The notes under the pieces are model-generated. The model was given only the letters and a program-made list of their open reading frames with translations. It searched no databases and was not told the DNA's origin. Below, one piece after another: positions 39,231 to 60,668 of a DNA stretch of 64,000 nt. Source of the stretch: Pseudomonadota bacterium. Lineage in GTDB: Bacteria > Pseudomonadota > Alphaproteobacteria > Rhodobacterales > Rhodobacteraceae. The DNA is taken from positions 17,240 to 81,239 of the forward strand of contig JBCCNB010000001.1 in NCBI GenBank assembly GCA_039026055.1. Reading direction: 5' to 3'. Positions within the stretch are counted from its first letter, which is position 1, and each line of letters begins with the position of its first letter. A program made the translations under genes and the position numbers.

Positions 39231-40372
39231 GTGAAAGACGTCATTCTGCACCTGGGATTGCATAAGACAGGCTCAACGTCGATCCAGGCAGCACTGCATG
39301 GCTTTGCGCAAGATAAAGTGAAGACTGTATCTTTTGCGTACGACAATCACTCGATCCCGATGTACACGATTTTTTCCAGTCGTAGGCACAACTATCACAT
39401 TTGGAAAAATGTCGGGTATGACGAACGTACGATTGACCGTGTCAGAGATGGATTTCTCAGCACATTGAATGCCGAGATGGATGATAAGAATTTTGAAACG
39501 CTGATGGTTTCCGGCGAAGATCTTAGCATTCTAGAGCCTCAAGACATAAAAGATATGGCCGCATTTTCGCGCGAAATGGGTGTCGGGTAAGGGCGGTTGC
39601 GTATGTTCGGCATCCGTCGCAATGGATTGTATCTCACATCAACCAGTTGATTTCGGGGGGTGGGTTAATTGGCAAATTTTCAACCAGGTTTAAAGAAAGG
39701 ATTCAGAATTATCAGGACGTTTTGGGGACGGAAAATGTGCACGTTTATTCTTATGAACAAGCGCTAGAAGACCACAAAAGTATTGTAGCGCACTTTGCAA
39801 AGACGCAGGCCATTGATCTCAAAGAGCCCGCTCGGGCAAATCAATCTGCCAATCCGTTGCAGATCGCTCTCTTGGCGAAACTCAATGAAGTGGGGTTCAA
39901 CACCACCCACCAAGGACGCTACGCTTTGAGAGAGAGGATCAGGCCAAAAATTCTGGAACTCTCCACCCCCGAAGCACCTTATGAGAAGACAGATAAACGA
40001 TATTACCAGTCTCTTTTGGAAGACGATGTACAAGAAGAGTGCCAATGGCTGCGAGACGAAATCGGAATAGACTATAGTGTCCCAGAGCGCGCGGACGTGG
40101 AGCCTTTAAGGTCATACTTCGACAAAATCTTAGCGGCGTCAGGCGACCAACTCAGGCAGCTTTTTTCCGAATTCGGAGTGCAATACGCGCAAGGGGACAA
40201 AATACAAAAGAAGTTTTTTGAAGTGGTATTCGAGATGGTCACCGGCCTGCGTTTTGCAGATTTTGACGCTGAAGAATACTTGGTCCTGAACCCCGACGTT
40301 AAAACTGCAAAAATGGATCCTCATACCCACTACTACACATTTGGGTTTAAAAATGGTCGACGGACCAAATGA
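39231..40372 (+). pseudogene. Sulfotransferase-like P-loop protein with one C-terminal HY..G..GR repeat; single-base frameshift at about 39578 (real or sequencing error)
   Basis: LHLGLHKTGSTSIQ...SGED in the first frame; after ATG-GG-TGT the second frame continues CRVRAVAYVRHPSQW and ends FDAEEYLVLNPDV...HYYTFGFKNGR. Confidence 0.7.
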
Positions 40373-40457
40373 GTGTTTCTTTGAAATAATCGATCCGCTG
40401 GGCTTCTTTCACGCTTAAAGTGGAATAGAAAAGACGACTTTTGGTGTCTGGCAATCC

Positions 40458-43400
40458 TTAAAAAAAGACGAAATCGTCTGCGTCCAGATTGCTTAAGGCG
40501 ACGCCCTTCAGCGCGATCGTGTTTGCCCCGTCGGTGATGGTTGTGACCCCATCCACGACCGACAGGTGATTGTCGACCAGATCGGTGAAATCTGTGATCC
40601 CTGTCACGCCGGACAGGTCGATCTCTTCGTCGTCATCCAGGGCGTTGAAATCAACGATGATGTCGTTGTCAAACCCGTCCACAAACACGAACGTATCCGA
40701 CCCCGTGCCGCCAAAGAGCACGTCATCAGCCGACCCACTGCTGAGTGTATCATCGCCGCCCATGCCCGCCAGAAGCTCGGCCTCGGTGCCGGCTGTCAGC
40801 GTGTCACCGGCCCCGGTCCCGGTCTGGCCGGTGGTGATCTCATCAAGCCCCGCGCGGTCTTCCGGCGTTCGACCGGAATTTGCGCCTGTGTTGATATAGT
40901 GAATGGTCGCGGCCTCGGCATCGGCGCCGAACACGCCAAGCAGATCCGCGTAGGTCGCAAGATAGGCGAACCCGTCAAATGTGATGCTCCGTCCTTTACT
41001 GGCGCCGGTCTGGATGTAATGCAGGGTGCCCGCATCCGCATCGGTGCCATAAAGCGCGCGCAGATCGGCGTAGGAGGCGATGTATTCGAGCCCGTCGAAC
41101 GTCACCTGCCGCCCGGCATTGGCCCCGTAGAGGATGTAGTGTTCGGTCGCGGCCTCCACATCGGTGCCAAAGATGCCGCGCAGATCCGCGTTGGAGGCAA
41201 GATACTCCAGGCCGTTGAACGTGATCTCACGGCCTTCGCCCGCGCCTATGTCGAGGAAGTGTTGTGCACCGGCCACCCGGTCCGTGCCGAAGGTGGCGCG
41301 CAGATCGGCGTAGGAGGCGATATAGTCCAGACCGTTGAAAGTGACTTCTCGCCCGGAATCCGCGCCGAATGTGATGTAGTGCCGGATGGCGGCATCAATA
41401 TCATTTCCGTAAAACGCGCGTAGATCGGAATGCGAGGCCAGGTACTCAAGGCCGTTGAAGGTAACCTCTCGCCCTTGATCCACACCTTCAAGAATATAGT
41501 GCAGGGTGCCGGCAAAACCGTTGATGCCCAAGGTTGCCCGGAGATCGGCGTAAGAGGCGATGTATTCCAAACCGTCGAACGTGATCTCACGCCCGGCATT
41601 TGCACCAAACAGGATGTAGTGCTGCGTCGCAGCTTCCACGTTTCTTCCATAGGTTGTCCTTAGGTCAGAATGGGACGCCAAATATTCCAGGCCGCTGAAG
41701 GTGATCTGCCGACCCTCATTTGCGCCTTGCAGAATGTAGTGTTCTGCGCCCGCGCTCCGATCAACTCCAAAAAGGTCGATCAGATCTGAATGTGACGCGA
41801 TGTATTCCAATCCTTTGAAGGTAACAGTGCGGCCGTCGTTGGCACCTTCAAGAATGTAGTGTTCTGCACCGGCATCCGCGTCTGCCCCGAAAAGCGCCGC
41901 CAGATCGGAATGAGACGCGAGGTATTCCATCCCGTAGAATCTAATCTCGCGTCCGGCATCCGCGCCAAATTCAATGTAGTGCTGCGTGCCTGCATCGGCA
42001 TTGGCGCCAAAGATTGCCCACAGGTCGCTGTAGGACGCCAAGTATTCCATGCCGCTGAAACTTATCTCGCGTCCTTCGTCGAGGCCTTGGGCGACATAGT
42101 GCTGCAGACCCGCCAAGCCGTCAGCGCCTAAATCCGCACGCAAATCTGCATAAGAGGCTATATAGGCCAGCGCATCAAATCCCGCGACGGCCCCGCTGGA
42201 CATTGTAATGTCGATGAATTCGAGGTTCTCGACATTCTGATAGAGATCAGTTCCATCTGTGCCGACGGTGTCATTCACAGCCACATAGCCGCCCCAGCGG
42301 GCCATGTTGTAGTCTGTGCTCATCCCAGAGAACATGCCCGTATCGGTGCCGTCGCCGCCATCGAGCATGTCATTACCGGCCCCACCCGTTACGGTGTCAT
42401 TGCCGTCGCCCGCTTCAATGATGTTGTTCGCTTCATTGCCGACAGCCGTATCATTGCCCGAACCCAGCTTCAGGTTCTCGATGATTGTGTCAATCGCGAT
42501 GCCGATGACACCGATGTTGGACCCCACATCCGAAAACGCACCATCATTGAGGTTGATGTTCAGGTTCTGGGAGTAGGGGCTCAGATCGAACAGGTCGATG
42601 CCGCCCTGATCAAAAAGCGTATAGGCCAGGAAATTGCCATTGGTGTTCGCCGTCGAATTACCCGACACCACGGAGTTGAACAGCTCGTCCATGTAGTTGC
42701 CGAGGTTGGACCCGTGGCCGAAGATTGTATCGCCCGCCGTGACGCTATTGCCGTCTGCCGCGCCATAGAAATCCTGTGCTGCGAGGATGTCGGCCATCAT
42801 GGTCGTGCCAAGCAAGGCGTAGGTCGCGTTGGTAGATGTGTTTTCGGACTGACTGAAATAGGACATGACTGACACTTGCCAGCTGTCATTCACGAAATAG
42901 GCATCAGTTGATCGTTGTGCCCGTGAAGTTGTAGTCGCCCATGTGGTTGAGGCCGATCGAATGTCCAAATTCGTGCACATACGTCTGGAAGGAATAACTG
43001 TCGATCGACGTACCGTTGTTTTGCAACCAAGCTTTCGATACGTTGAGTTCCACACCGACAGTGTTGAAACCGGGCGCGCCGTTGGTGGACCCAGCGTTGG
43101 GGAAGAAGGCAAAGGCACCGCTGTCTTCATCATCCACGGTGATCATCTCACCAGATGTCACAATCTGGAAGTCGAGGTCCACAACCATTTCCCAGGCTTC
43201 CATCGCCCAGAGTGCGAGCTGCTGGCCTTCTGCCGTCAACCCGCTGATGTTTACCGTGATCACGTTGGACGTGGTCGTGTCGTAGGTGAATGCAAACCCG
43301 TTTGTTCCGGTCTTCAGGAATTCCGCCAATTCCGCATTTGTTCCAACGCCCCCCGGGAAGGGCATGCTTTCCGTTACCGCAAGCGTGTAGGTGCCGGTAT

Positions 43401-44931
43401 TCGCCAGAAAATAGGATTCGACCTCAATATAGAACGTACTGATCGTGGCGGCCGTGTAGGTGATTTGGGCGTCAAATCCGGCCCCATCCAGATCGTCATA
43501 CTCGATGAAATTTCCATTCGCATCGTAGAGCCTGAGATCCGTATCACCTAAGGTGCCTCCGCCGCTCTGTGCGCCCAAGGCATCTATGATATAGGTTTTG
43601 CCGGCTTCAAAGGTGACAGCAATCCAATCTTCATCGCCCGCTGTTCCAATCGAGCCGACAAACGTCTCGCCCACGTTCACAGAGTAGGGCGTGGACGTGT
43701 CATCGGGCGCGTCAACACCTTCCTGACCAAGGCCTAGGTTGTTGACTGAAAGGTTGTATATGCCGGTGTTAAAGAAGACGTCAGCCTCAACCTCGATAAA
43801 GTAAGTCCCAGAGGTTGCCGCGGTGTAGGTTATACTGACGTCATTGTTTGACCCCTCAACGCTTTCAGTGATCTCGCTTCCGGATGCGTCAAACAGCTTG
43901 AGGGATGCGCCGGTCAACAATCCGTCAGGGCCGAACCGTGCGCCGGGGACGTCAATTTGGTAGGTCTGGCCAGCCACCAGTGATACAGCGATCCAATCCT
44001 TGTCACGCTCGTACGAAACGGTGCCCGTAAAGGTGCTGCCAACATCCATCAAATACGTGGAAGAAAAATCCCCTTCGGCATCTTCGAATTCGTCGGCTGC
44101 GCCGATTGTCGCCGTGGTGACCGTGTATGTTCCTGTCGCGGAGGCATCATCACCGCCAACGGCAATATAGAAGGTGCCTGTGGTTTGCGCGGTGTAGATG
44201 ATCGCGGCGTCCAGACCAATGCCGCTTTGCCGGTCGTACACCAGCAAGTTGCCGGTCGCGTCGTATAGCCAAACATCGCTGTTATCGAGCGTTTCGTCCG
44301 CTCCTGTGTCACCGATCGCATTGATCTTGTAGGTCTGACCGGCTGTCAGGGAAATTGAAATCCAATCCTGATCCCCGCCTGTCGCGATCTCACCGGCAAA
44401 TCTGTCCCCAACAACCATGGAATAGCCCGTTGTGAGGTCAGCTGACGCGTCTGCAACTTCGGGTGTTTCCTGATTGATCGTGACGACATATGTGCCAGTC
44501 GCTGAGTCACTGAACGCGTCAATCCCAAGGTAATAGGTGCCATCCGCAAATGGCTGCCAAACAAGGTTTGCGTCGTTACCTGCGCTGTCATTGTCATCAA
44601 ACGTATTCTGATTGCCTGAGCTGGAATAAAAATACAGGTCGGTGTTTTCGAGCGTGCCACCGCCGATGCTGTCGCTGCCAAGCACATTGATGATGTACCA
44701 GACATTGCCCGTGACATTGAGTTCCAATCAATCCTGGGTGTCTCCGCTGGTGATTTCGCCCACAAATGTATCGCCAACACCCACCGAGTAGACTGTCGAA
44801 GTGTCGTTCGCTGCGTCCGTCGTCTCTGAGAAGGTGGCTGAGAATGTCTACGCAATACCGTCAAACGCCGGCTTACCTGGCTCGTGCCGGTCCGGCACAA
44901 AAGTCTGGGTCATCATGCAGACATTACACAT
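40458..44931 (-). pseudogene. Large RTX/serralysin-like M10 zinc metalloprotease (4 PPC-like domains, catalytic domain, RTX motifs, 11x40-aa repeats) interrupted by two stops and a frameshift
   Basis: Start MCNVCMMTQTF at 44931; in-frame TAG 44848-50 and TGA 44728-30; HEFGHSIGLNH; frameshift near 42905 before the Met-turn SVMSY; GGAGND and GGDGTD RTX motifs; C-terminus DADDFVFF. Confidence 0.8.
40860..42179 (-). repeat. Intragenic tandem array of 11 x 120 bp (40 aa)
   Basis: Units F.G.EY(L/I)AS(Y/H).DL...G....A(A/G)..HY...GA..GR.(I/V)T, counted by hand from FDALAYIASY to GANSGRTPE. Confidence 0.9.
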
Positions 44932-44958
44932 GGTGGGGGTCTTTCCTTAGGCGCAAGT

Positions 44959-45447
44959 CTATTCTGGGTTGTTCTTGTGTTGGTTTAAAGCGGATTCCAA
45001 ACCGGGGCTGGCGTTCTCGATCATGCGTGTTGCGAAATCAACATCATCCTGACCGTCCCGTGATACGCGGTCTCCAGACCCGTCGGGCCAGGACAAGTAC
45101 CCGGCGTCTTCCGTCGTGTTCAAGCGGATCTCGAAGGCGACGTCAGGCACGGGCTCTGGATTGATGCGGAATATGCGTCCAGGAGCTTTTTGGGCCAGCA
45201 CTTGTACCAGAGCGCGGCACAAATGCAGGTTTGCGTCACACGTAATGGCCACCACAGGTCGCGGCAATTGTTTAGCGGATGCAACACTACCAACGCTCAT
45301 CAACATACCCAAAGTCGCACCAACACATGTTGTCCGCGCCAGCGCACGCCGCACGCTGAACACGCTACCATTCTGAAACGCTGCGAGAGCAGACAACACT
45401 TTGAACCGTCCCATCGTGCCCCACAGGTTGATTAACGATTCAGACAT
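44959..45447 (-). CDS. Hypothetical, possibly exported protein directly upstream of the protease gene; start uncertain
   Basis: Hydrophobic stretch ending SVASA, ITCDANLHLC Cys pair; stop lies 28 nt before the protease ATG. Confidence 0.5.
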   Translation of the reverse strand: MSESLINLWGTMGRFKVLSALAAFQNGSVFSVRRALARTTCVGATLGMLMSVGSVASAKQLPRPVVAITCDANLHLCRALVQVLAQKAPGRIFRINPEPVPDVAFEIRLNTTEDAGYLSWPDGSGDRVSRDGQDDVDFATRMIENASPGLESALNQHKNNPE

Positions 45448-45638
45448 CGTTTTTCTAGCGTAAACATTAAGGTCATTGTGTGATCAAAATACGCAGACTT
45501 GCCTTGCTTTTGTTGGGAAAAAGAGCCCGGGGGGTATCACTTTTTCCAGTCCATAATCTTGTGGGCCGTGTTTTGAGCCCATGGCCAAACGCAACGTAAG
45601 TAAATGCCGCGCGTCAAAGAAACCAAAAATGTGTGGAT

Positions 45639-45715
45639 TGGCGGACCGAGGAGGATTCGAACCCCCGACCCCCTGATTCGTAGTCAGGTACTCTATCCAG
45701 CTGAGCTATCGGTCC
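45639..45715 (-). tRNA. tRNA-Arg (ACG)
   Basis: Minus strand reads GGACCGATAGCTCAGCTGGATAGAGTACCTGACTACGAATCAGG...GGTTCGAATCCTCCTCGGTCCGCCA. Confidence 0.97.
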
Positions 45716-45783
45716 GTGAGAGCGAGGGAATAGACATCTGCGTGCGGCGATGCAAGCGCTTTTCGGGGGCCGCTGCGCTGTTC

Positions 45784-47175
45784 CTAATGTTCCGACTTTT
45801 CGCGGGGCAGGGTGAGGACAAATTGTGTGCCCTCCGGACCCGTGTATCCCAGTGATAAATCGCCGCCGTGCCCCCGCAGCAATTCGCGTGCAATCGAAAG
45901 GCCAAGACCGGTTCCGCCCTTGGTGGTGCCGCCCTGAAAGGCTTCAAAAAGGTGTTCCTGCGCCTTTGGTGGCAGGCCCGGTCCTGTGTCGCTGATCGTC
46001 ATGACATGCGTGTCTGGTGTATCCTCGGCCGCAATGCTGATTTCGCCCGGATTGCCTGTCGAGATGATGGCCTGACGCGCATTGCGTGTCATGTTGGAGA
46101 TCACGCGATAGAGTTGTTCGGCATCGGCGCAAACCGGCATGCCCACGGGCACATCCGCGGCGAAACTGACATCGGCATCGCCCACCGCAAGGCGTTCGGC
46201 GTCAATCACATCCTGCACCAGATCATCCAGGTCAATCATGGCCAATTTGGGTGCTGGTTCTTCTGCCTTTCCAAAGGCCAGCGTGCTTTCGCAAAGATGC
46301 ACAGCGCGCGTGATCGAATTCACCAGTTTGGGGGCCATGCGCTTAACGGCAGGGTCCTCGCTCATTTCGATCCGGTCGGTAAAAAGCTGCGCGGACGTTA
46401 GGATGTTGCGCAGATCGTGGCTGACCTTGGCTACGGCCCCGCCCAACTGCGCCAGGCGTTCGCGCTGTTTCAGCGCGCCGGTCATCTGGGTTTGCAGCGA
46501 CAAGAGCGCTTCTTCGGCTTCGCGCAGCTCCGACACCCCAGCAGAGGGCGAGATGCGATAACGCGCATCTTCCGGCGCATCGGCATAGGCCGCCATGGTG
46601 CCCACAACGTGCTTGATGGGCTTCACGAGAAGGGCACGTACCGCGACAAAAAGAAGGCCCGCCGTGACAATTGAAATCACGGCCGACAAGATCAGGATGC
46701 GCAACCCGTAATCCAACATCGCATCGCGCAACTCGGACGTCTCCAGCGTCACTTCGATCAAAAGCCCGCCCATCTGGCTGGGTTGACCGATCACGCGGAT
46801 CACTTCACGTTCCGGCGTGATCAGGCGGGATAGCGCATCCCGGATAAGTTCCATCGCCGTCGGGGCGCGCAAATCGAAGGTTTGGCTGATCGGTTCGGGC
46901 ATGGGCGCAGACAGGATCAACTGCCGCGCCTCATCACGCCTGAGCACAATGTTGAAGACGCCCGCGTTCATCAAAAGCTCTTCTCGCAATTCGGCGCTGA
47001 TGTCTTCGCTGGCCAGCAAGGCCAGCGATGCAATTTGTGATCGCTCCAGTTTCAGGTTCAGGAACTCTTCACGGTAGCGCGCCACGGAAGGCACGAAAAT
47101 CAGGATTTCCGCGATCATCACGAAGATCGCCGTCAGGACAAGAAACCGCCCGGAGAGTGTGCGAAGGAACTTCAT
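45784..47175 (-). CDS. Membrane sensor histidine kinase
   Basis: Two TM segments; KVSHDLRNIL, NMTRNARQA, SDTGPGLP, GTGLGLSI. Confidence 0.9.
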   Translation of the reverse strand: MKFLRTLSGRFLVLTAIFVMIAEILIFVPSVARYREEFLNLKLERSQIASLALLASEDISAELREELLMNAGVFNIVLRRDEARQLILSAPMPEPISQTFDLRAPTAMELIRDALSRLITPEREVIRVIGQPSQMGGLLIEVTLETSELRDAMLDYGLRILILSAVISIVTAGLLFVAVRALLVKPIKHVVGTMAAYADAPEDARYRISPSAGVSELREAEEALLSLQTQMTGALKQRERLAQLGGAVAKVSHDLRNILTSAQLFTDRIEMSEDPAVKRMAPKLVNSITRAVHLCESTLAFGKAEEPAPKLAMIDLDDLVQDVIDAERLAVGDADVSFAADVPVGMPVCADAEQLYRVISNMTRNARQAIISTGNPGEISIAAEDTPDTHVMTISDTGPGLPPKAQEHLFEAFQGGTTKGGTGLGLSIARELLRGHGGDLSLGYTGPEGTQFVLTLPREKSEH

Positions 47176-47208
47176 TTACGCCTGTCAGACTATCCGTTTC
47201 GTCAACCG

Positions 47209-48627
47209 TCAGGGCAGCCAGCGTTGCACCAGCCCCACGATCCGCTTGACCTTAGGGTTATCAAACAACCTCGGCGAGAAATAGGCCCCTGCAACACGTT
47301 TGTTGACCTCACCCAAAGTGGGGTAGGGGGCAACCATACTGGCGATCTGGCTCATCTTCATCTTGTTGGCGATGGCGAGCGCCCAGACACCGATCAATTC
47401 GCCCGCCTGGGGACCAGCGATGGAGGCTCCCACGGGGCGGCCTTTCACGACCATGATTTTGATCAGGCCTTGGGTTTTGCGTTCCGCGATGGCGCGGTCA
47501 TTGCCGCTGAACTCAAAGCGGGCGACTTCCAATGCTCTGCCGTGCGCTTTTCGTGCTTCAGCCTCTGTCATGCCCACTTGAGCCAGTTCGGGATCAGTAT
47601 AGGTCGCCCAGGGGATGTGATCGGTGCGCTGCTTTGCGGGCAGACCAAAGAGGGCAGAGCGGATGATGAGCCCCGCGTGATAGCCGGCCACATGCGTAAA
47701 TTGCAGACCGCCAGCCACATCGCCGATGGCATAGACGCGCTTGTTGGTGGTCTTCATCTGCGCATCCACCTCGATGCCGCGCTTGTTGGTTTTGATCCCT
47801 GCCTTGTCGAGGTCAAGCTTGTCGATATTGGATTTACGCCCCACGGCCATCAGAAGGTGGCTGCCTTTGAAGATGCGCCCGTCCTGCGTGGTGACGGTGA
47901 TGTCACCTGCTTTGCCAGAGATTTCCTGCGCCAGGGCGTCCTCCGCAATCTCCACGCCTTCAGCGCGCAGTTGGTTCAGAACGACTTCGGCCATTTCCGG
48001 ATCGTCATTGCCAAGCGCTTTCGCGCCTTCGATGACCGTGACCTTGGACCCAAGACGGATATGGGCTTGCGCCATTTCCATACCGATTGGCCCACCGCCG
48101 ATGATCAGCAGGTGCTTGGGCTGTTCGCGCAGGTCAAAGAGCGTTTCATTGGTCTCAAAAGGAACCTTGTCGAGCCCCGGGATGGGTGGCACGAAAGGCG
48201 AAGACCCCGTGGAGATCACCACGCGACGGGCCGTGATCACCGTGTCACCGGCATGCACCTCTGTCGGAGAGATGAAGCGGCCGAATTCCGTGATGACATG
48301 CACGCCAAGGCCCTCAAAGCGTTCGACGCTGTCATGAGGTTCGATCGTGGCGATCACGTCATGGACATGGTCCTTGGCCGCGGCGTAATCCACTTTCGGT
48401 GTCTGATCCGCGACGCCGTAGGGTTGGGCGTGGCCCTGGCCATAGGCGGCCTTGCCTGCGGCGATCAGCGCCTTGGACGGGACACAGCCGTAGTTCAGAC
48501 AATCACCGCCCATTTTGTGGCCTTCGAGCAGGACCACCGAGGCCCCCATCTGTACGGCACCCGCAGCCACGGACAGCCCGCCAGAGCCGGCCCCGATGAC
48601 CAGCAGATCGGTCTTAATGCGTTCCAT
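47209..48627 (-). CDS. Pyridine nucleotide-disulfide oxidoreductase (dihydrolipoamide dehydrogenase/MerA-like family)
   Basis: IGAGSGG, GGDCLNYGCVPSK, IGGGPIG.E, YAIGD, APYPTLGE. Confidence 0.85.
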   Translation of the reverse strand: MERIKTDLLVIGAGSGGLSVAAGAVQMGASVVLLEGHKMGGDCLNYGCVPSKALIAAGKAAYGQGHAQPYGVADQTPKVDYAAAKDHVHDVIATIEPHDSVERFEGLGVHVITEFGRFISPTEVHAGDTVITARRVVISTGSSPFVPPIPGLDKVPFETNETLFDLREQPKHLLIIGGGPIGMEMAQAHIRLGSKVTVIEGAKALGNDDPEMAEVVLNQLRAEGVEIAEDALAQEISGKAGDITVTTQDGRIFKGSHLLMAVGRKSNIDKLDLDKAGIKTNKRGIEVDAQMKTTNKRVYAIGDVAGGLQFTHVAGYHAGLIIRSALFGLPAKQRTDHIPWATYTDPELAQVGMTEAEARKAHGRALEVARFEFSGNDRAIAERKTQGLIKIMVVKGRPVGASIAGPQAGELIGVWALAIANKMKMSQIASMVAPYPTLGEVNKRVAGAYFSPRLFDNPKVKRIVGLVQRWLP

Positions 48628-48629
48628 GA

Positions 48630-49361
48630 TTAGATGTCCTTTTTGCCGCGAATGGCTTTGATCGCGATGGGCAGGGCGGCGAGAACGCAGAGCCCGAGGA
48701 TCGGCCCGATCACTTGCGGCTCCCACAGGATCGACAGGTTGGGGCTTTCGCCGCGGTCAAAAACCTCGCCCAAGCCCACGCCGATCCACGTAAAGACCAG
48801 CGCACCCGGGATAATACCCAAAATCGTGGTGAAGACGAAGTTCCGGAATTTTACCCCGACCAGCGCGGGCAGAAGGTTGGCCACAAAGAAGGGCACGGCA
48901 GGCACAAGACGCAGCAGGAAAAGCACGCTGATTTCATTCTCGCGCAGCCCGTCTTTCAGTTTCTTGAGGCTACCATCAGAGGCGTCCATTTTCGCTGCGA
49001 GCGCCTGGCCCAGCCCGAAGCGCGCTGCGAGGAAAATCGCGCTTGCCCCGACAGAGGCCGCGATCACGTTGAACGTGGTGCCGAGTGCGAGACCGAAGAG
49101 AAAACCCCCGGTGACCGAAGCCACGGCGGCACCGGGCAGCGAAAAGGCAACGATGACGATGTAAATGCCGATGAAGGCCGCAGCGAGCCCAATGAAGTTG
49201 CTGTCGCGGAAGGCCAGCAGCGCTTCGCGATTGTCGCGCAAGGTTTCAAAGCTCAGGTAGTCTTTCAGCGTGAAAAACCCGATCAATGCTACGAGGAGGA
49301 TTATGGCCAGCGGAGCGTGACGCAAAAGTCCCGGTTTGGAAGGTGTCTGAGTGTTGTCCAT
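48630..49361 (-). CDS. TVP38/TMEM64 (DedA-like) membrane protein
   Basis: FSLPGA, GGFLFG, LRLVPAVPFFVANL, TILGIIPG. Confidence 0.9.
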   Translation of the reverse strand: MDNTQTPSKPGLLRHAPLAIILLVALIGFFTLKDYLSFETLRDNREALLAFRDSNFIGLAAAFIGIYIVIVAFSLPGAAVASVTGGFLFGLALGTTFNVIAASVGASAIFLAARFGLGQALAAKMDASDGSLKKLKDGLRENEISVLFLLRLVPAVPFFVANLLPALVGVKFRNFVFTTILGIIPGALVFTWIGVGLGEVFDRGESPNLSILWEPQVIGPILGLCVLAALPIAIKAIRGKKDI

Positions 49362-49573
49362 GTTCGCTCTCGGTTTTTTGTCCATTTCTCTTAGACCATA
49401 GATGCGTGGATAAGGGCCGCGACGCCAGTGGTCTCACGCGGCGGTGATCGGGGGTGAACGTAACCCAGCGTCAATTACGGGTGTTTTAAGGCCTAGCCCC
49501 CCGTTTTGTCATGTTTTGTAACACGTAAGGCTGCCAAACCCTGCGTTTTGTTGCAAAACCAGAGGAAGCGGGT

Positions 49574-49602
49574 TTGACTTGGGGTAGGGCTGGGCTTATA
49601 GA
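49574..49602 (+). promoter_or_regulatory. Candidate sigma70 promoter for rpmH
   Basis: TTGACT-17 bp-TATAGA. Confidence 0.55.
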
Positions 49603-49687
49603 CCGGGCTTCATATCGGATTTTACGGGTCTGACGGGCGAATCCCGCCGCGAAAAAAAACAGACCCGACAGAGTGGAGAGCGGATCG

Positions 49688-49822: not shown

Positions 49823-49845
49823 GCGCGAGCGTTAAGGTCAAACAC

Positions 49846-50531: not shown

Positions 50532-51116
50532 CGTGATCGATTGGAACGGCCTTGTGCCATTCCATTCAAACCCCTGAAAATGTGTCTCTGCGACTTTGCG
50601 ATGGCCCATTTTGGTCAACACAACATGCTGGGTGGCTGCTGAAGACAGTTCACCGACGATTGCGCGGAACCCTGCAGCGCGCGCAATGGGTTGGATGTGC
50701 TCTCTCATCGCTTGGTAGGTGCCCAGGCCGCGCGCGTCTGGATGGGTGGCGGCCATGTCGACAAGCAGAACCTCACCCGGACCTAATGCGTGCTGTTTGT
50801 GGTAGGTTTGGGTGAGCGAGCGGGTCAAGGCCGCGATTTCAGGATAGGGGCCGGAAGGCGGCGCGTCGGATAGGGTCGCATACATGTCCGTGGCGATGAG
50901 GCAGCCCAACATGCGGCCGTCTGTTGTCCGGGCGGCAAGCGACAGATTTCGCGATACCATGGCCTTGAAAGATGGCCGCAAGCCCTGACGATAAGGCGCA
51001 AGCGCGACATCCAAGGCCGCATGCAAGCTGCTGGATTGCGCGAAGACCTCGGTGACAAGATCGAACGCCTCGTCGAACTGGTCGGGGGTGACAGGCGTTA
51101 TAGAAAACTCGGTCAT
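50493..51116 (-). CDS. GNAT-fold N-acetyltransferase-like protein
   Basis: ATHPDARGLG acetyl-CoA loop, AARTTDGRMLGC, SSAATQHV..KMG. Confidence 0.65.
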   Translation of the reverse strand: MTEFSITPVTPDQFDEAFDLVTEVFAQSSSLHAALDVALAPYRQGLRPSFKAMVSRNLSLAARTTDGRMLGCLIATDMYATLSDAPPSGPYPEIAALTRSLTQTYHKQHALGPGEVLLVDMAATHPDARGLGTYQAMREHIQPIARAAGFRAIVGELSSAATQHVVLTKMGHRKVAETHFQGFEWNGTRPFQSITSPPSIILAEGRL

Positions 51117-51165
51117 GAAAGCTCTATAGCTTATCATTATGCCCTTCGGGCGCGCCTTGCTTAAC

Positions 51166-51191
51166 AAGAAAGGCCACGCTTTCGCGTGGCC
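51166..51191 (-). terminator. Probable terminator after the methyltransferase gene
   Basis: GGCCACGC-TTTC-GCGTGGCC with an A-rich left flank; the stem resembles the one at 3353-3376. Confidence 0.5.
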
Positions 51192-51228
51192 CATGGTATC
51201 TGGTGGCCTCGCTGGCGCTCGGGGCCTT

Positions 51229-52313
51229 TTAAGCGCGGCGACGTCTGCGTCCGCCTGCGCGACCGCCGCGGCCTTCGCCTTCTTCACCGGGTTTGGGCGG
51301 GGCCTTGTTGAACTTGATCCAGTCGCCGCCATGGGGGTCGTTGTTGGTGAGGAAATTGGCAGCGCGAATGGCTTCCATTTCCTTGCCCGCGCGTTGCTTA
51401 GTGGACCCAAGGCCAAAGAGCTGGCAGAAGGTTTCGTCATCCATGTCGTCGGGGATGACGATGCCTGCGGCGGCGGCCTCAGCGCGTTTTGCGTCCTTGT
51501 CGGCCTGTTTCACGGCAAGTGCGACAGGGTTCATGATGGCCGATGTCATGCCAGCACCCATGGCCATGGGCAAAAACGCGTTGTTGATGCCGTGGCGGTT
51601 GGGCAAGCCGAAAGAGATGTTGGAGGCCCCGCAGGTGGTGTTGACGCCCAGTTCTTCGCGCAGTTTGCGCACCAGCGTGAAGACCTGTTGCCCGGCAGTG
51701 GCCATCGCGCCGATGGGCATCACCAGCGGATCGACCACGATGTCATGGGCTGGGATCCCGTGATCGGCGGCGCGTTCAACGATCATCTTGGCAACGGCAA
51801 AGCGGACTTCCGGGTCTTCAGAGATGCCCGTTTCGTCGTTGGAAATGGCCACCACCGGCACCTTGTACTTGGCACAGAGCGGCAGCACCTTTTCCATTTT
51901 CTCTTCTTCGCCCGTCACGGAGTTCACGAGCGGGCGGCCTTCGCAGGCTTCAAGTCCTGCTTGCAACGCTTCGGGCACCGAGCTGTCGATGCAGAGCGGC
52001 ACATCGACGATCCCCTGCACCAGGCCCACCAATTCTTTCATCAAAGGTGGTTCAACGAAGTTGTTGTCGGCGTAGCGCACATCCTCTGCCATCTTGTTCT
52101 TGAAGACAGCACCGGAGTTGATATCGAGCATGGTGGCGCCTGCTTCAACCTGGGCGAGGCATCGGATTTCACCATCTCGAAATTGCCCTGTTCGAGCTGT
52201 TCGTTCAGGATCCGGCGGCCGGTGGGGTTGATCCGTTCGCCGATCACGCAGAAGGGCTGATCAAAACCAATAATCGCGGTTTTGGATTTGGATTCGACGA
52301 TGGTGCGGGTCAT
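51229..52313 (-). CDS. Methyltetrahydrofolate:cobalamin methyltransferase (pterin-binding module of split MetH); 1-nt frameshift at about 52158, probably a sequencing error
   Basis: VIGERINPTGR in the first frame; restoring one C (GCC-CTC) gives DALAQVEAGATMLDIN...LCIDSS...NSV...VDPLVMP...GASNISFGLP. Confidence 0.8.
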
Positions 52314-52324
52314 TTAAGGATCCT

Positions 52325-53251
52325 TTAGGCGGCAGTTGCCGGTTTGGTCGATTGGCCGCCGTTTTCGATGGCCCAGTTGGCGTTGGTCTTGATGCCGCCC
52401 AGCGGGAAGAAATGGACGCTCTCGATGTTGAAATCGGGGTTGGCGGCTTTGTGGGCGGCCAGTTCCGACAGAACTTCGGTGGGTTCATAGGGCAGAAGCA
52501 GTTTCGTCACATCCATGGCGCGCTTTTGCAGGACCTTGAGAGACGCGCCCACGCCGCAAGCGATAGCAAATTTGATCAGGGTCTGAAGCTTGGCAGGCCC
52601 TGCGATGCCGATATGGACGGGAATGTCGATGCCAGCCGCCTTCAGGCTATCGGCCCAGTCGATGATCGGACCGGCTTCAAAGGCAAACTGCGTGGCGAGA
52701 GCCATCTGGGCGTCGGTTGTTTCGGAAAACTTCTGCTTCCAGCGGAGCGCGTCATCCACGTTGTTTGTGGACCCGTCGGGATCGATGTCCTTGTTGCCTT
52801 CGGGGTGACCGGCAACATGCAGGCGCTTGAAGCCCGCCTTGTCGAAGGCACCGGATTCCAAAAGTTGCATCGAGCTGTGAAAGTCGCCGTGGGGCGTGTC
52901 AACGCCGCCGGCCAACAGAAGCGCCTGATCGACGCCCGCCTCGCCCTGATATCGCGCAATCCAGTCGGTGAGTGTTGCCTCATCTTTGATGATACGGGCC
53001 GGGAAATGGGGCATCACCGGGTAGCCATCATCGGCCAAGCGCTTGGCGGTCGCAACCATGTCTTCGATGGGCGTGCCTTCGATATGGGCGATATACACCC
53101 GTGTGCCAGCAGGCAGGAGCGCGCGGAAGTCTTCAACCTTTTCGGCGGTGCGCGGCATCACCTCGATCGAATACCCTTTCAGGAAGGATTCCATCTCAGG
53201 CGTTACGGATGGCGTTGCCGCCTCACGCTTTTTGAAGTTCAAAAGTGCCAT
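52325..53251 (-). CDS. metF: Methylenetetrahydrofolate reductase-like protein
   Basis: YSIEVMP, PHFPAR, LLLAGG, VAGHPEG, TQFAF, HFFPLGG. Confidence 0.75.
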   Translation of the reverse strand: MALLNFKKREAATPSVTPEMESFLKGYSIEVMPRTAEKVEDFRALLPAGTRVYIAHIEGTPIEDMVATAKRLADDGYPVMPHFPARIIKDEATLTDWIARYQGEAGVDQALLLAGGVDTPHGDFHSSMQLLESGAFDKAGFKRLHVAGHPEGNKDIDPDGSTNNVDDALRWKQKFSETTDAQMALATQFAFEAGPIIDWADSLKAAGIDIPVHIGIAGPAKLQTLIKFAIACGVGASLKVLQKRAMDVTKLLLPYEPTEVLSELAAHKAANPDFNIESVHFFPLGGIKTNANWAIENGGQSTKPATAA

Positions 53252-53279
53252 TAAGGCCTCCCATAAGCTGCGGTCTGGA

Positions 53280-53576
53280 TCACGCCCAGCCATTGTTGGC
53301 GATCAGCTGCCTGACCCGGTCCCGATCATATTCTTCTTCAAGTCGTGTGGCCTCAGACTCGGCCACGTCGGCCGCGTCACCCTCCACCTGATAGGGCGGG
53401 GCCTTGCGCCATTCTGCCAGATAAGCATCAGAATCCTTGGCGCCAAGCCGCATGGCCGCGGCATCAATGGCTTGTTCAAAGCGCTCTGGCAGCTGTTTTT
53501 TTGCGCCTCGGCGGCCCTTGCCCACAATGACTTGGGCGGGGATATCGCGCCAGTAAACGACAGTCACGTCAACCAT
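53280..53576 (-). CDS. 'Virulence factor' family (YWRDIP) protein of the split-MetH locus
   Basis: VVYWRDIPAQVIV, LPERFEQAIDAAAM, DAYLAEWRK. Confidence 0.85.
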   Translation of the reverse strand: MVDVTVVYWRDIPAQVIVGKGRRGAKKQLPERFEQAIDAAAMRLGAKDSDAYLAEWRKAPPYQVEGDAADVAESEATRLEEEYDRDRVRQLIANNGWA

Positions 53577-53836
53577 GGATGATTCCTTTGCAAACTTGAC
53601 CCTAACTAATGCAGAGCGTGTCTCATCCGGAGTCGATTTTCGACAAAACGGAAAACGACTGCGACACCCGCGTTCTTTCAGTTCATGTGACCTCAGATGC
53701 CATAGGTTCAAGCACCACGTCACGTGAAAGCTTCTCATCATAAAGAATCAAGCGCGCTCAAGGGTGTGTGTCGGGCTTGCGTCGGCAGCATTCTGCGCCT
53801 ACCTTCAAGTTAACTCGAAATGGAAGGCGTAAAGTT

Positions 53837-54952
53837 ATGGCGCCTAAGCGTCCCGTTGGTGCGGGCGCTATCCCAAATACGGTTGAGAGCCCCGCACTGA
53901 ACCGGCCCGGAACAGCCCCGCTTTATGCAGCACTGGATCTGGGCACAAATTCTTGTCGCATGCTGGTTGCCCGACCGAATGGCAGCCAATTTGAGGTCGT
54001 GGACAGTTTCTCCAAATCTGTGCAGCTTGGATCGGGCCTTGAGAAGACCGGAAAACTGTCACGTGCCTCGATCTATCGTACAATTCAGGCGCTGCGTGTC
54101 TGCCATCAGAAGATCAAGCGCAACAAAGTCAGTCGGATGCGTTTGGTGGCGACAGAAGCTTGTCGTCGGGCCTCTAATGGAGAGGCGTTTCTGGCGCGGG
54201 TGAAGCGGGAAACGGGGCTGAAGCTTGATATCATTGAGCCACAAGAGGAGGCGCAACTGGCCGTCGTGTCATGCGCGCCACTTGTGGGTAAGCGGACCGA
54301 ACAGTTGCTGGTCGTTGATATCGGCGGTGGGTCGACGGAGCTTGTCTGGATTGACCTGACGAAGGTGCCGCCCAAGGAGCGCGCCCAGTCGATCATGCGG
54401 ATGCATAACGGGTTCGAGCCACGGGTGATGACGGATGCTGCCGCGCGGGTGGTGGATTGGATTTCGGTGCCGTTGGGCGTGGCCACGTTGCGCGATCAGT
54501 TCAATGATGTGGAAGACGACGGCGCGCGCTTTGCGCTGATGAGCTGGTTTTTCGAAGAGAACCTGTCGGAATTTGCCCCTTACAAGGATGAACCGACCCG
54601 AGAAGGGTTTCAGATCGTCGGGACATCCGGGACGGTGACGACAGTTGCGGCCAGCCATTTGGGGCTGAAACGCTATGATCGCAACAAGGTGGACGGGCTG
54701 AGGATGAGTTCTGAGGAAATCGACAAGGTCATCCGGTCTTATCTGGCACTCGGGCCTACGGGCCGTCGGAAGGATCCCCGGATCGGGACGGACCGGCAGG
54801 CGCTGATCATGTCGGGGTCGGCCATTTTGCAGGCGCTTTTGCGGTGTTGGCCAACGGACAGGTTGTCGGTGGCCGATCGTGGGCTGCGAGAGGGAATCCT
54901 GTATGCGCTCATGTCCTCAGACGGGATGCTTGCCGATGATCCGATTGATTGA
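53837..54952 (+). CDS. Ppx/GppA-family phosphatase
   Basis: AALDLGTNSCR, VATEACR, DIGGGSTE, GTSGT, DRGLREG. Confidence 0.92.
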   Translation: MAPKRPVGAGAIPNTVESPALNRPGTAPLYAALDLGTNSCRMLVARPNGSQFEVVDSFSKSVQLGSGLEKTGKLSRASIYRTIQALRVCHQKIKRNKVSRMRLVATEACRRASNGEAFLARVKRETGLKLDIIEPQEEAQLAVVSCAPLVGKRTEQLLVVDIGGGSTELVWIDLTKVPPKERAQSIMRMHNGFEPRVMTDAAARVVDWISVPLGVATLRDQFNDVEDDGARFALMSWFFEENLSEFAPYKDEPTREGFQIVGTSGTVTTVAASHLGLKRYDRNKVDGLRMSSEEIDKVIRSYLALGPTGRRKDPRIGTDRQALIMSGSAILQALLRCWPTDRLSVADRGLREGILYALMSSDGMLADDPID

Positions 54953-54961
54953 GGGCACGTA

Positions 54962-55675
54962 ATGGCCAAGACACCGGATGGAAAGAACACCTCGGGCCGT
55001 GGACAACGGGATCTGAAGGTGAAAGTGAAAACCGCGCGGGGGCGGAAATCATCCTCGACCCGCTGGCTGCAGCGGCAGTTGAACGACCCTTACGTGAAAC
55101 GCGCCCAGGCTGAAGGCTATCGTGGGCGGGCTGCGTTTAAGATCATGGAACTTGATGACAAGTTCGGGTTTCTCAGACCCGGTGCGCGGGTGGTTGATCT
55201 GGGCTGCGCACCGGGCGGGTGGTGTCAAGTGGCGGTGCCTCGTGTGAATGCGTTGGGCGATGCGGGCAAGCCGCGTGGATACATCCTGGGCATTGACCTG
55301 CAGGAGGTCGAACCCATTCCGGGGGTGGAGCTGCATCAACTGGATTTCATGCAAGACGACGCAGATCTACGCGTGAAGGAATGGTTGGGCGGCAAGGCCG
55401 ATGTGGTGATGTCGGATATGGCAGCGGCCTCCAGCGGGCATAAACAGACCGATCATTTGCGCATTATCGCGCTGTGTGAAGCGGCGGCTTATCTGGCGTT
55501 TGACGTGCTGGAGGAGGGGGGCACGTTCGTGTCGAAAGTTCTGGCGGGGGGCGCGGAAGGTGAGTTGCAGAAGATCCTGAAGCAACGCTTCACGAAGGTG
55601 GCCAATGTAAAGCCACCCGCGTCACGATCTGACAGTTCGGAAAAATTCGTGGTCGCAACCGGATTTCGCGGATAG
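54962..55675 (+). CDS. rlmE: 23S rRNA Um2552 methyltransferase
   Basis: [35 protein letters not shown]. Confidence 0.95.
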
Positions 55676-56053
55676 GCCGCACGTCGGTCCTTACGAACGG
55701 TCTCGCTCAGGCTGCGCGCAGGGACGCAAGCGCCTTCACGGTAAAAGCGGTTTCCCAATTCAGGTCGTGTTCGGCGGGCTCAAACGTGTCTTTCGCACTG
55801 CGCGCCAGATTCTCCTGGCGCAGCAGTTCAAATAGCTGAGCGTGCCGGGCAGGGGCATCGCGCATGGGTTTCTCCAAGTCAATCAAGTTGGTTTCAACAA
55901 CAAGGCGTCTTGGATAGCGGCCAAATCTGGCCGTATTGTCCCGCAAATTGGGTGATTTTGGGGTTGTTGGTGATGACGGTAACGGCGTGTCAGTATCAAC
56001 CGGTGCCGTTTGCGCGGAGACGATCTGAGATCGGTTTTATCGTTTGAAACAGC

Positions 56054-57067
56054 TCACAGAACGGTATTCCAGTCTTCCAACAGAGCCGTTGCTCTGGCGA
56101 TTTGCCAACTTTGTACTGCTGCTGCGGTGTCTTTACAGGGTTCCAAACCAACGATGAATTCATTTGCCCCGGCAGTGGTGACCGCAAAATGAGCGCATTT
56201 GAATTGGCACAAATCCAGTTTCACAAGATCCAAAAACAGATCCACGAAGCTGAGTGGCGTGAAGACCCAGCAATGGGCATCTGCATAGGCTGTCGAAGCG
56301 GCGTTTTTGCGCACCAGCTTCAACGCATCACGAGCGGTGCGCAGGTGTTCTGGCGGCGCTGACAAATAGGTGCCCAACCAGGCCTCTTTCGCGTCAACGG
56401 GCGTGTAATAAAGGAAGTTGTCAAACAGCTGCGCGGGTTCTGGACGAGACGGTTTTGAAAAGTAGGGGCCCACAACATCATCGAATTCAGAGCAGTCGCG
56501 AAGTAAGTCGAACGTAAACCGCTTATCCGGAACGACTAATCTGATCTGACCATCTTGAGCCAGTATCTCGGCAAGCGCGTTCAGCCCGCCGACTAAATCG
56601 GGGACGTGCTCAATCACATGCGATGCAACAACCAATGAAAACTTCGTTTCTGCTCCAAATATTTTTGACATGTCTGTGTCATCGATCACGAAATCGACGT
56701 CCACGATATCAGCAACATTCACATTTGCATCATGTCGGTATTTTTCTGCGATTTCGGACGTGGATGCGTGATCCGCGAACTTTGCGTTGGGATGCCCGCG
56801 CGGTAGCAACGGGTTGGTCAAAGCGCCAAACTCGACACTTGGCTTCGTTAGATCAAGGTCGGCCAGCACCCTTTGGCGTCGGTCAGGTTCAAACTCACGG
56901 CCTTCTGCGAACCCGTGGTTCACAAAATGATTAACAAGCCCATCATCCGACTGGATGCCAGACGTCTTCAGGTCGGGGTTTCGTTGCAGATATTCATGGG
57001 CATCAAAATGGATTGCCATCCACTTGGTAAGTGGGGCTGCTGCCCTAGTCCTTAGCTTGTCTACCAT
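56054..57067 (-). CDS. Class I SAM-dependent methyltransferase-like protein with one N-terminal HF..G..EGR repeat
   Basis: FDAHEYLQRNPDL...NHFVNHGFAEGR; VEFGAL; VVASHVIEHVPD; VVPDKRFTFD; DAHCWVFT. Confidence 0.75.
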   Translation of the reverse strand: MVDKLRTRAAAPLTKWMAIHFDAHEYLQRNPDLKTSGIQSDDGLVNHFVNHGFAEGREFEPDRRQRVLADLDLTKPSVEFGALTNPLLPRGHPNAKFADHASTSEIAEKYRHDANVNVADIVDVDFVIDDTDMSKIFGAETKFSLVVASHVIEHVPDLVGGLNALAEILAQDGQIRLVVPDKRFTFDLLRDCSEFDDVVGPYFSKPSRPEPAQLFDNFLYYTPVDAKEAWLGTYLSAPPEHLRTARDALKLVRKNAASTAYADAHCWVFTPLSFVDLFLDLVKLDLCQFKCAHFAVTTAGANEFIVGLEPCKDTAAAVQSWQIARATALLEDWNTVL

Positions 57068-60000
57068 TCACGACGTCCTGAATTGCTGCATACCATGCGC
57101 TGTCTTCGCTATCATGTCCTGACCAGCTTGCCATGTGTTCCCGGCCTGCTTCCAGTTTACGTTTCAGATGCTCGGGGTTGTCGACCAGTTCAGAAAGTGC
57201 ATCGAACCAAGCGCCGGGTGTGTGACCTACCTTTACAACATAGTCTCCGTCATATGTTGCATATTCCGCGTAGTCGGACACGACCGGCAGCGCACCCATT
57301 GAGATGTAATCCGCAATTTTTATGGCAGACTTGGACGCATTGAAGGTGGTCTCAACAAGCGGCCCAAGGCCGATATGCCATCTGTCCAAGCCTCGTACCC
57401 AAGACATGAACCTCAGATAGCTGCCCGCCACGTGTGGGGGAATTTCGACGCGCTGGATGTAATCTGGAAAGCCTGCTTCTGCCGTTACGCCTACAATTCC
57501 TATTTGCACAGAGGGTCCGTATTTCCGGTGCAGACGCTCCAGATCGGGAAGGATCATTTGCAAATCAGCCGTGTGCGTCATCGTGCCCATGTAAAGAATG
57601 CGCACCGGGCCCTCTACGTCCACGAAAGGCGCATTGCTAACGCAAAATTGCGGCGCCAGTGCGTTGCTTATGACTTTGGTGTCGGCTTGGAAAGACGTCG
57701 ACATCAACGACTTCAATGGCTCTGTAGAAACTGTAATCTGCATGGCTGACGATGCCAGTTTTGAAATGCGTTCGACATTGCGGTTGAGGTGGGTCGCCTC
57801 ATCATGGGTCGCAATCGGTGTTATCAAATTATCGTCCAAGTCAAAAATAATTGGAATATTGAAACGGTCTTTGTATCGCAGCAGCGCTTCAAGCCCTTCG
57901 TCCGTCGAAACTGCATTGCGTTGCGTAACGATAACATCCGGCTCGACATCAGCCAGTTCGTTATCTCGAATAATGAATGCCTCAATCAGGCCGGCCTTGT
58001 GCAATTGCATCAGGGGCAGGATCAGACGAATAAAGCCACAAGGCGAATAAAACCCGTCCAGATTACGTTCTGGTATCACGGCCACACTGGGACGCCCTGC
58101 GACTGTTGCCGAATTTTTTCGAGCATCGCTCTTGTCTGGCTCGGCAGGGCTCTTCAACCACTGATGAAAAGCCGCTTTGGCGCCGTATCCGGTCGATATT
58201 CTGGGCGTTTCTCCTATTGTGACGAAACTGGGCATAGATGCGGCTTCGATCAAAGTCGCAATCCACGTTTCTGAGGATGCTCCCAGTGGTAGAAGCGTGG
58301 CATTCTCTAAGTTTTGAAGGCGTTCAACAAATGCGCCGAGTTTTGTTGATACGATCGGAAGGCCAGAATTGATCGCTTGAGAAAGCACGTAACTGTACGT
58401 TTCCGGCCCAATCGCCGGTAGCCATAAGACATCAATATTATAGCCAGATGTAAGATCTTGTAGATCTTCCTCCTGATACTGGCCATGGATGCATATGTTG
58501 CAATCCAAAGCCCATGCCGCATCACCGTGGTAGGATCCAATGAGGACAAAATCGATATCAAGAAACCGCGATGCAAGCGCTACGTTGCGGAGCACTTCGC
58601 CGCCCTTTTGATGCGCGATGTGGCCAAGAAGGCCAACACGTACTCGGCCCTTTTGCACGTTTGGTTCTCGGCGGACGATGGGCACATCGGCATTGGTCTT
58701 TTCGTGGGGAATGGCCGTGATCGAAATGTCTTCGAAATATCGGTTAAAACGCGCTGCTGTGTCATTGGACGGGGTGACGACCCGGTCGGCCCCACGCAAA
58801 AGCTTGCGACTGATCCGCCTCCATGTGTCGATTGTACTTACGTCTGGTGACGTGAACCCAACGCATCCGTCGTAAATGTCTTCGGACGACTCCAGCCAAA
58901 ACGCGTCGCCCTGTCGGGCGATCAAGTTGATGGACGGGCAAGCCAGATAGTAATCGTGTAAGAACACTTCATATGGCGCCTGCAAATCGTTGAGAAAGTC
59001 CACCAGCCCCTTGTCTCGCCAACCAATCGTATGTTGAACGCTGATTTTCGCAAATCCAAAGGACCGTAAAAACGGCGCAAGGTCTTTGAAGTAGCGGCCG
59101 TCAATTTGGATCGTCGGATGGTCCGGAACAGAGGGAAAAGACAGTTCAAAACCACCCGGGGTGGCCGACAATACCGCAGCGTGGAGATGGCCGCTTTGCG
59201 CGTCGATGACCTGCGAAATAAATTTGGCGGTCCCGCCGCCAAGACTGTGCGATAGGAAAAGCACACTTGGCCTTGGCCCCAATCTGAACATTTCTCTGGT
59301 CGCGGCCATGAGGTATTTCAACGTCACGTTGGACTGAACGAACCGTGCAACGTTGTTCAGATAGTGAGGGTATATGTCTTCTATGGCCCGCTCTCCGCTC
59401 AGACGCGAGGATGATTTGGAGCCAAAGCTGACTTCTCCGACATGGTAGACGACGACATCGCATGCCAGGACGTGTTTCCAGCCCTTCTCTGACGCCCTCA
59501 GGCAAAAATCGACTTCTTCGCCGTAGTCTTTGCCGAACGTTACAAGATCGAAATACCCAACATCCTCCAAACATTCGCGCTTTATGTACATCGCAGACCC
59601 AACGGCCGTGGGTATCTCAATTGATTGGCGGGCAGACGCGTTATGGAAAGCAGCATCTAGTTGACCAAGGCTCACCCCCGGGGGCAGTGGGCCGCCATTG
59701 ATGTCCGGATAGCTTTAGATTGTTGCGTTGTTCGAAAAGGGCGTGACCGTGGCCACATCCTTGTCGTTCCTGGCATGCCAAGCCAATTTTTCCAGCCAGC
59801 CCGCAGGTACCTCTGTGTCACTGTTCAGCAGCACCACATCGTTTGACGACGAATATCGCATCCCACGATCTACGGACCCCACGAAGCCGAGGTTGTCCTC
59901 GTTCTCAAGCAGGATGATGTCGTCAGCTGCCGCGACCTCCCGCAGGTAATCTGTGATCTCTGGCTCCGGCGAACAGTCATTGATGACGATGATGTTGTGA

Positions 60001-60668
60001 ACCGGGCCTATTCCCCATTTGATCAGGCTTTCAATGCATCTTTTTGTATCCTCCAGCCCTCGATACACCGGAATGATAACATCGATTGCTGCGCCTTCTG
60101 CGATGTCGTCTGTCGTTGCATCAAGGCCTTTGAGGTCAGGCCGCATGCTGAGGATATCTGCGACTTCGTTGATGGGCAGCGATTGTGATTGGCCATGTTT
60201 CAAATAGTGCGCCAACGGATTTGACACGCTGTCTGGATGCGCTGTTCCATACCACGCCGCATTGAAATCAGCGCTTGGATTGCGCCCTTCATCTAAGCCG
60301 TGCAAGAGGTAGTGTTCCAACGCGGAATTGGTCCACTGGTGCAAATCTGAGTAGAATGAAAAATACCAGTTGGGGTCAAAATGCTTATTGGGTGAGCGTC
60401 CTTCACGCATGCCGTGGCTGAGGAAATGATCCCACAGATCAATATCGAGATGGGTTAGATCGGCATAATGGTTTCTGTACCAGTCTTCATCCCACAACGC
60501 CGACAAACGGTCTTCGGCAAGGGGGGTAAGGTCGACCCACGCGGCGGGTCTGCCGAGGATTTCAGGCGTTGCAGGAACACGCTTTGAAAAACTGCCGATG
60601 ACGGACCTGACAAACTTACGAGGTGAAACGCGCATTATGTAGATACCTTGCCTTAGGCCCAAGTTCAT
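57045..60668 (-). pseudogene. Multidomain glycosyltransferase (3 N-terminal repeats, GT2, then GT4-like domains) with an in-frame TAA at 59715-59717
   Basis: IDVIIPVYRG, NDCSPE, NLGFV, LLNSDTEV, TPFSNNATI*SYP continuing in the same frame to YGEEVDFCLRA..GW, HDYY..CP, QKG, PETYSYVLS, FDLDDNL, KSAIK. Confidence 0.8.

Follow-up and report, generated by a model that had tools for sequence, protein, structure and literature searches.

A candidate surface-polysaccharide-binding repeat shared by glycan-building enzymes, secreted proteins and phage lysins

Short non-catalytic repeats such as LysM, SLH, CWB2, the choline-binding repeats, and PG_binding_1 are often found three per protein at the termini of unrelated secreted proteins and lysins. 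Here we describe a repeat of 37-41 aa (hereafter, the module) carried by four proteins encoded in a 64,000-nucleotide stretch of DNA from a Rhodobacteraceae bacterium (contig JBCCNB010000001.1 of GCA_039026055.1, positions 17,240 to 81,239, forward strand; hereafter, the window). From the proteins that carry it, the module is probably a non-catalytic surface-polysaccharide-binding domain, which would tether enzymes, retain secreted proteins, and aim lysins. LysM and PG_binding_1 co-occur with the module in the same lysins, and no Pfam match was found between the module and any of the families named above; unlike such repeats, its dominant second host class consists of cytoplasmic polysaccharide synthases.

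Two further described systems are also close. CW_7 (Cpl-7), like the module as predicted, consists of 37-43-aa three-helix repeats with a conserved Arg, placed behind several lysin catalytic domains, and these repeats bind a wall glycan fragment (PMC5705596, accessible part). Membership of the module in CW_7 by sequence was rejected (five profiles scored no higher than 3.5 bits against Cpl-7, and the Pfam scans gave no CW_7 match). As for topology, the predicted model has three helices per repeat, and CW_7 was absent from the fold search results, in which a five-repeat query masks 40-residue matches. Unlike CW_7, the module is also found on cytoplasmic glycan enzymes and on enzymes of giant viruses. 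DUF4214/Psh and the N-terminal domain of RsaA resemble the module in being helical and in lying on RTX proteins or other proteins of the type I secretion system (T1SS) with varied enzyme cargo. O-antigen binding was proposed for Psh from modelling, not measurement (bioRxiv 10.64898/2026.09.02.748959, accessible part), and the RsaA domain was solved bound to lipopolysaccharide (LPS), according to the title of PDB 6t72. The module had no Pfam match to either, and the fold matches were insignificant (no profile-profile comparison was made).

Copies in the window and extent of the family

By six-frame scan and alignment, all 16 copies that the initial annotation had placed on four proteins in two islets were recovered at their positions: a single C-terminal copy on a sulfotransferase-like gene (40259..40366, + strand), an array of 11 copies on an RTX protease (40860..42182, - strand, with a period of 120 nt or 40 aa), a single N-terminal copy on a methyltransferase (56888..57010, - strand), and an N-terminal triad on a glycosyltransferase (60168..60494, - strand, 38-aa period), whose copies lie at 60387-60494, 60273-60383, and, for the degenerate third, 60168-60269. 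A 17th copy was found on a second methyltransferase elsewhere in this genome (G000:C6:13397; G000 is this genome); the gene of that methyltransferase (L001:8392-9228) forms an insertion that separates dnaN from dnaA. The 16 window copies share invariant Y, D, H, and G, and all four host classes retain F, Y, D, H, G, E, and R; the Tyr is conserved at 99-100%, with Phe not a common alternative.

The profile of the five enzyme copies ranked the RTX protein at an E-value of 1.3e-39 among 66,725 six-frame genome segments, and the non-self matches of the 11-copy RTX profile at E<=1 in the same genome were only the glycosyltransferase (0.0017) and the methyltransferase (0.17). Enzyme and RTX copies were aligned by hhalign at 94.8%, and reversed decoys gave no match to the module profiles in five sequence sets. 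Since the leave-out profiles of the two groups find each other, the copies form one homologous family, as had been proposed.

The absence of a known domain was likewise borne out. None of the 16 copies matched Pfam at E<=10 (HMMER filters drop most matches above about 0.1), and otherwise there were only short, seemingly unrelated matches to YjcQ and Form-deh_trans; no meaningful NCBIfam model spanned the repeats, nor did any in PHROG (three fragments only), and no PDB sequence matched significantly. No description of the module was found in the literature covered, which excluded closed journals and preprint supplements. With a 57-row profile, 39,701 protein clusters at 50% identity were detected at E<=1e-3 and 6,878 at 1e-30 (1.84 billion proteins). 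Counting G000, 31 of 301 genomes of the class have the module, as do 35 of 301 of the phylum; it was also found in 12-13 of 36 genus relatives, in cyanobacteria, and on 109 plasmid records. Among the plasmid settings are a cluster for capsule ABC export, a T1SS-plus-rml cluster, and a polysaccharide plasmid of a roseobacter. It is thus a real, large, and apparently unnamed family.

A three-helix fold of the module is predicted: five repeats modelled with AlphaFold from a 68-row alignment gave three helices per repeat (predicted local distance difference test, 97.3; predicted template modelling score (pTM), 0.90). Searches of PDB folds with this model gave nothing significant, a negative that falls short of establishing a new fold. 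In BFVD, the top matches were giant-virus glycosyltransferases and related glycosylation enzymes (two at E<=1e-3), and single repeats were matched with root-mean-square deviations of 1.6-1.9 A, suggesting that the single repeat is the folding unit.

Host proteins and the candidate role

The alphaproteobacterial hosts were sampled from the best-scoring loci of 20 genomes, and one batch covered 66 of the 72 module open reading frames (ORFs); three very long ORFs, all RTX, followed later, and three short fragments were left out. The 66 hosts comprised 32 proteins of RTX, adhesin, or protease type, 16 glycosyltransferases, two PhyH proteins, and 16 without family. The secreted hosts carry 3-5 copies in 30 of 32 cases, as a terminal block in 21 and internally in 11; among the 16 glycosyltransferases, the module is internal in six and single in five. 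Secreted host types included M10 and S8 proteases, CAP, cyclophilin, 5'-nucleotidase, Calx-beta, cadherin, and Ig adhesins, with GH16, GH5, SGNH, and M23 as further cargo among database matches, and an N-terminal module triad was seen on large RTX or unannotated proteins of 619-2149 aa (L118, L119, L120, L129), a placement like that of an S-layer anchor. Enzyme hosts included GT2, GT4, RgpF, WsaF, WbsX, GT61, and pyruvyl- and methyltransferases, with up to about 24 copies per protein; their loci sit in capsule-export, T1SS, and rml clusters. The two PhyH proteins are neighbouring dioxygenases that each terminate in one copy (L130:4904-7726), an exception to the pattern of transferases and secreted proteins. 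Small proteins of 154-181 aa, largely made of 2-3 modules (L076, L092, L101, L041:15740-16201), some within polysaccharide clusters, are possible stand-alone binders or adaptors.

The viral set comprised 66 ORFs passing E<=1e-3 in 53 of 80 examined loci, and many of the module-positive viral contigs are labelled GVMAG. Scanning of 54 viral hosts assigned 10 glycosyltransferases, one DUF5672 protein, one methyltransferase, four lysins, and one PAN protein, leaving 37 unannotated. Long unannotated proteins with 1-2 N-terminal copies on viral contigs of higher GC content (L183, L202, L206, L226, L299) are possibly virion proteins. Cys-flanked module variants were seen in L169, L170, L181, and L209, viral proteins that have a hydrophobic stretch at the N-terminus and, in one case, PAN; this sequence feature suggests extracellular disulfide-bonded forms.

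Twelve distinct lysin ORFs were found on viral contigs (eight of them among 17 ORFs covered by one scan), with 1-4 copies C-terminal of the catalytic domain, and both window profiles detected them (enzyme-only, 12 of 12 at E<=1.4e-4; RTX-only, 9 of 12 at E<1e-3). Five catalytic architectures precede the module (Amidase_2, Amidase_3, Glucosaminidase+Amidase_2, CHAP, and Phage_lysozyme). It is the sole annotated non-catalytic part in some lysins (L288, L295), whereas in others it lies beside LysM (L289, L301) or beside PG_binding_1 (L290, L307); holins flank four of the 10 lysin loci in the neighbour check. A module pair of 69-100% identity was found, among the 120 matches listed, with Amidase_2 (86), Amidase_3 (24), and PF01594 (3) or on unannotated proteins (7), and some of the 120 bear Clostridium names; the occurrence of this pair behind both Amidase_2 and Amidase_3 indicates that it is exchanged as a unit. 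C-terminal, repeated, non-catalytic, swapped among unrelated catalytic domains, and neighboured by holins, the module thus has the features of the endolysin wall-binding-domain class. In lysins of Gram-positive phages, the C-terminal slot is normally that of the wall-binding domain (PMC5705596, accessible part).

The hosts sort into four classes: enzymes that transfer or decorate surface glycan, type-I-secreted RTX proteases and adhesins, giant-virus glycosylation enzymes, and phage endolysins. Contact with a surface glycan is their one common denominator, and glycan binding is therefore the simplest common role. The module would hold cytoplasmic glycosyl-, methyl-, and sulfotransferases on the growing chain; in type-I-secreted proteins, 2-15 copies would give avidity and keep the protein on the cell surface; and in phage endolysins it would serve as the wall-binding domain. 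A rhamnose-rich polymer is a lead for the ligand, because of the RgpF and WsaF hosts, the rml neighbours, and the rhamnose contained in mimivirus polysaccharides (PMC9614988, accessible part); subfamilies may differ. The portable glycan-binding module of the initial annotation has thus gained strong indirect support, from the wall-binding slot of endolysins and from the fusions to bacterial and giant-virus glycan enzymes, with binding itself as the step deduced. An obligate tie between one exported protein and the enzymes of synthesis, methylation, and sulfation gained no support as a rule, for a single host class often occurs alone in relatives. Among the 12 module-positive genus relatives, only G033 has an RTX array, and the annotated hosts in the others are glycan enzymes (two ORFs are without family and three lay outside the scan). 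In G223, G334, and G092, which are rich in secreted copies, none of the 24 module frames carries GT2, the only glycosyltransferase domain tested for, and six of the 24 lie within 10 kb of a GT2 gene (no statistic was attached). Since host classes occur alone across genomes, the module needs no partner class in the same genome. The earlier interpretation is thus partly supported overall, and within this lineage the four genes travel together (G033).

Several points weigh against surface-polysaccharide binding. The host samples were biased to high-scoring, multi-copy proteins, and the viral contigs were found by a degenerate DNA pattern that fixed the H, G, E, G, and R columns (F, Y, and D, left free by the pattern, are conserved at 97-100% in viral copies). 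The conserved Y/D/H/E/R may face outward or may merely hold the fold. The C-terminal domain of some clostridial lysins can serve other roles. Peptidoglycan is not met by the cytoplasmic or giant-virus enzymes and so is not the single common ligand, which would then be a different wall polymer unless specificity has diverged. rmlC is near-universal, in 35 of 37 genus genomes, and so uninformative on the rhamnose lead. Hosts without obvious action on a polymer include the two PhyH proteins and the 37 of 54 unannotated viral hosts, some of them phage virion-like, and a viral RmlD-named protein was a weak fold match (BFVD, E 0.5).

These last hosts, namely PhyH and the RmlD-named protein, themselves weakly supported, would suit protein-protein docking, in which copies on different enzymes would stack into a glycan-building assembly or bring enzymes to the secreted substrate before export. 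Docking would also suit clusters in which several genes each bear the module, the existence of the small proteins made largely of modules, and the rigid packing of five tandem copies in the model (pTM 0.90). We nevertheless consider it unlikely, because endolysins, whose phages need no glycan complex, would go unexplained, a single host class is found alone in many genomes, and about 24 copies in one enzyme fit polymer avidity better than stoichiometric docking. The lysin copies, lying in the wall-binding slot beside LysM and PG_binding_1, speak against binding of the membrane or of a lipid-linked carrier (inner leaflet, undecaprenyl-linked glycan, or LPS lipid) in place of the sugar chain; with conserved D, H, E, and R suggesting a specific ligand or a structural network over bulk lipid, we rate this slightly below docking, although enzyme hosts work at membranes, secreted hosts remain near the envelope, and the fold consists of short helices with aromatics exposed at some positions.

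A stable spacer or ruler, whose only task would be to set how far catalytic domains stand from one another or from the surface, would agree with the rigid tandem model and with the internal placement noted for 11 of the 32 secreted hosts and six of the 16 glycosyltransferases. Single terminal copies, as on the window methyltransferase, the sulfotransferase-like gene, and the one-copy glycosyltransferases (5 of 16), space nothing, however, and polar residues are conserved across phyla and viruses, which makes a spacer improbable. Tyr-linked S-layer glycans and glycogenin priming exist, and the near-invariant Tyr, together with the presence of the module on giant-virus glycan enzymes, would allow the Tyr to be an acceptor or primer on which glycan is built; as an acceptor would serve no purpose on a lysin and the helical core may enclose the Tyr, we give this covalent carrier the least credence of all.

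Islets and gene decay in the window

Gene content and run labels suggest that the DNA comes from a marine alphaproteobacterium of roseobacter type. The four genes lie in two islets of lower GC content (0.536 in islet 1, against 0.59-0.60 in the flanks, and 0.522 in islet 2). Islet 1 comprises a sulfotransferase without the module, the sulfotransferase-like gene, and the M10/RTX protease. The first of these (37292..38878, - strand) is intact, has 528 aa with a long coiled coil (PF13469, E 5.7e-8, and coiled-coil matches), and presumably resembles chain-end capping or ruler proteins; its orthologue in the relative G033 adjoins the same genes. The sulfotransferase-like gene (39138..40372, + strand) is in two frames with a change near 39566, which match one 385-aa frame of G033 at 74% and 63%. 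A sulfotransferase host had been proposed here; the module copy stands, and the family label is weak (Pfam E 0.076, with no family for the intact relative at 5e-4), the clear sulfotransferase being the neighbour without a module. Between the two divergent genes, two strong adjacent hairpins (38916-39035; -58.4 kcal/mol, z -7.7) are single copy in the genome without an Rfam match, and differently flanked contigs in all three sequencing runs (X1, X2, X3) match this region, so that a small element, either conserved or mobile, may lie here.

The protease (40458..44931, - strand, putative start at 44931; PF04151, PF00413, PF08548, PF00353, NF035945) contains, in order, PPC repeats, HEXXHXXGXXH, M10_C, RTX, the 11 modules, and a final RTX block, and is interrupted by a stop at 44728-44730 and a frame change near 42902-42925. 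With HEXXHXXGXXH, M10_C, and RTX repeats, and with T1SS in the genome (four HlyD-type loci above the cut-off), it is of the serralysin M10 type. A 162-aa gene without Pfam family (44959-45447, - strand; 57% to its G033 counterpart) lies between the protease and tRNA-Arg (45639..45715, - strand), near the end of islet 1. Islet 2, adjoined by tRNA-Ser (61138..61227, - strand), holds a multi-domain GT2+GT4 glycosyltransferase (57045..60668, - strand; PF00535, PF13692), with an in-frame stop at 59715-59717 and a G033 orthologue of one 1198-aa frame (66%), and, overlapping its end, the intact 337-aa S-adenosylmethionine methyltransferase (56054..57067, - strand; PF13489, E 1.1e-6; G033 orthologue, 63%). 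No target duplications were found at these tRNA-proximal islets in the window.

Interruptions therefore affect three of the four window genes that bear the module, only the methyltransferase being intact. The breaks recur in long contigs from X1 and X2, each possibly a source run of this DNA; at the protease break, one low-depth contig of X3 reads differently. Alignments of the flanking core genes are unbroken and stop-free in at least 19 cases, at 72-99% identity versus 56-74% for the islet genes. In G033, gene content and order are the same, the genes are uninterrupted, and the protease is tandemly duplicated (L032:503-6948, G033:C66; 1052 and 1055 aa, unbroken) with 9 and 8 copies versus 11 here, so that copy number varies among close relatives. 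A Stf0 sulfotransferase precedes the C6-type methyltransferase in G033, and it has no match in G000 at 1e-15. The presence of the four genes together in G033 and the breakage of three together here fit one pathway, which in this strain looks like it is decaying; alternatively, this may be a general decay of accessory genes.

Possible surface sorting and lysin wall binding

A broader proposal, which we put forward tentatively and hold to be possible though doubtful, is that one new fold reads a shared, possibly rhamnose-rich surface-polymer motif on both sides of the membrane, guiding polymer-building enzymes, anchoring T1SS cargo, aiming lysins of clostridial and other Gram-positive phages, and organising the glycan factories of giant viruses. 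If true, it would make the module a general, so far unnamed surface-sorting code for the T1SS cargo of Gram-negative bacteria. Half of bimodular lysins carry an unannotated domain (PhaLP 2.0, accessible part), and the accessible parts of PMC8051824 and PhaLP 2.0 mention numerous lysin regions that lack annotation and do not describe the present module. A role in surface-polysaccharide binding would provide a new wall-binding family for many lysins with an unannotated second domain, would mark glycosylation genes in giant viruses, and would assign a function to a so far unannotated portion of some 40,000 protein clusters. It would also explain how many RTX proteins of alphaproteobacteria and cyanobacteria are retained on the cell.

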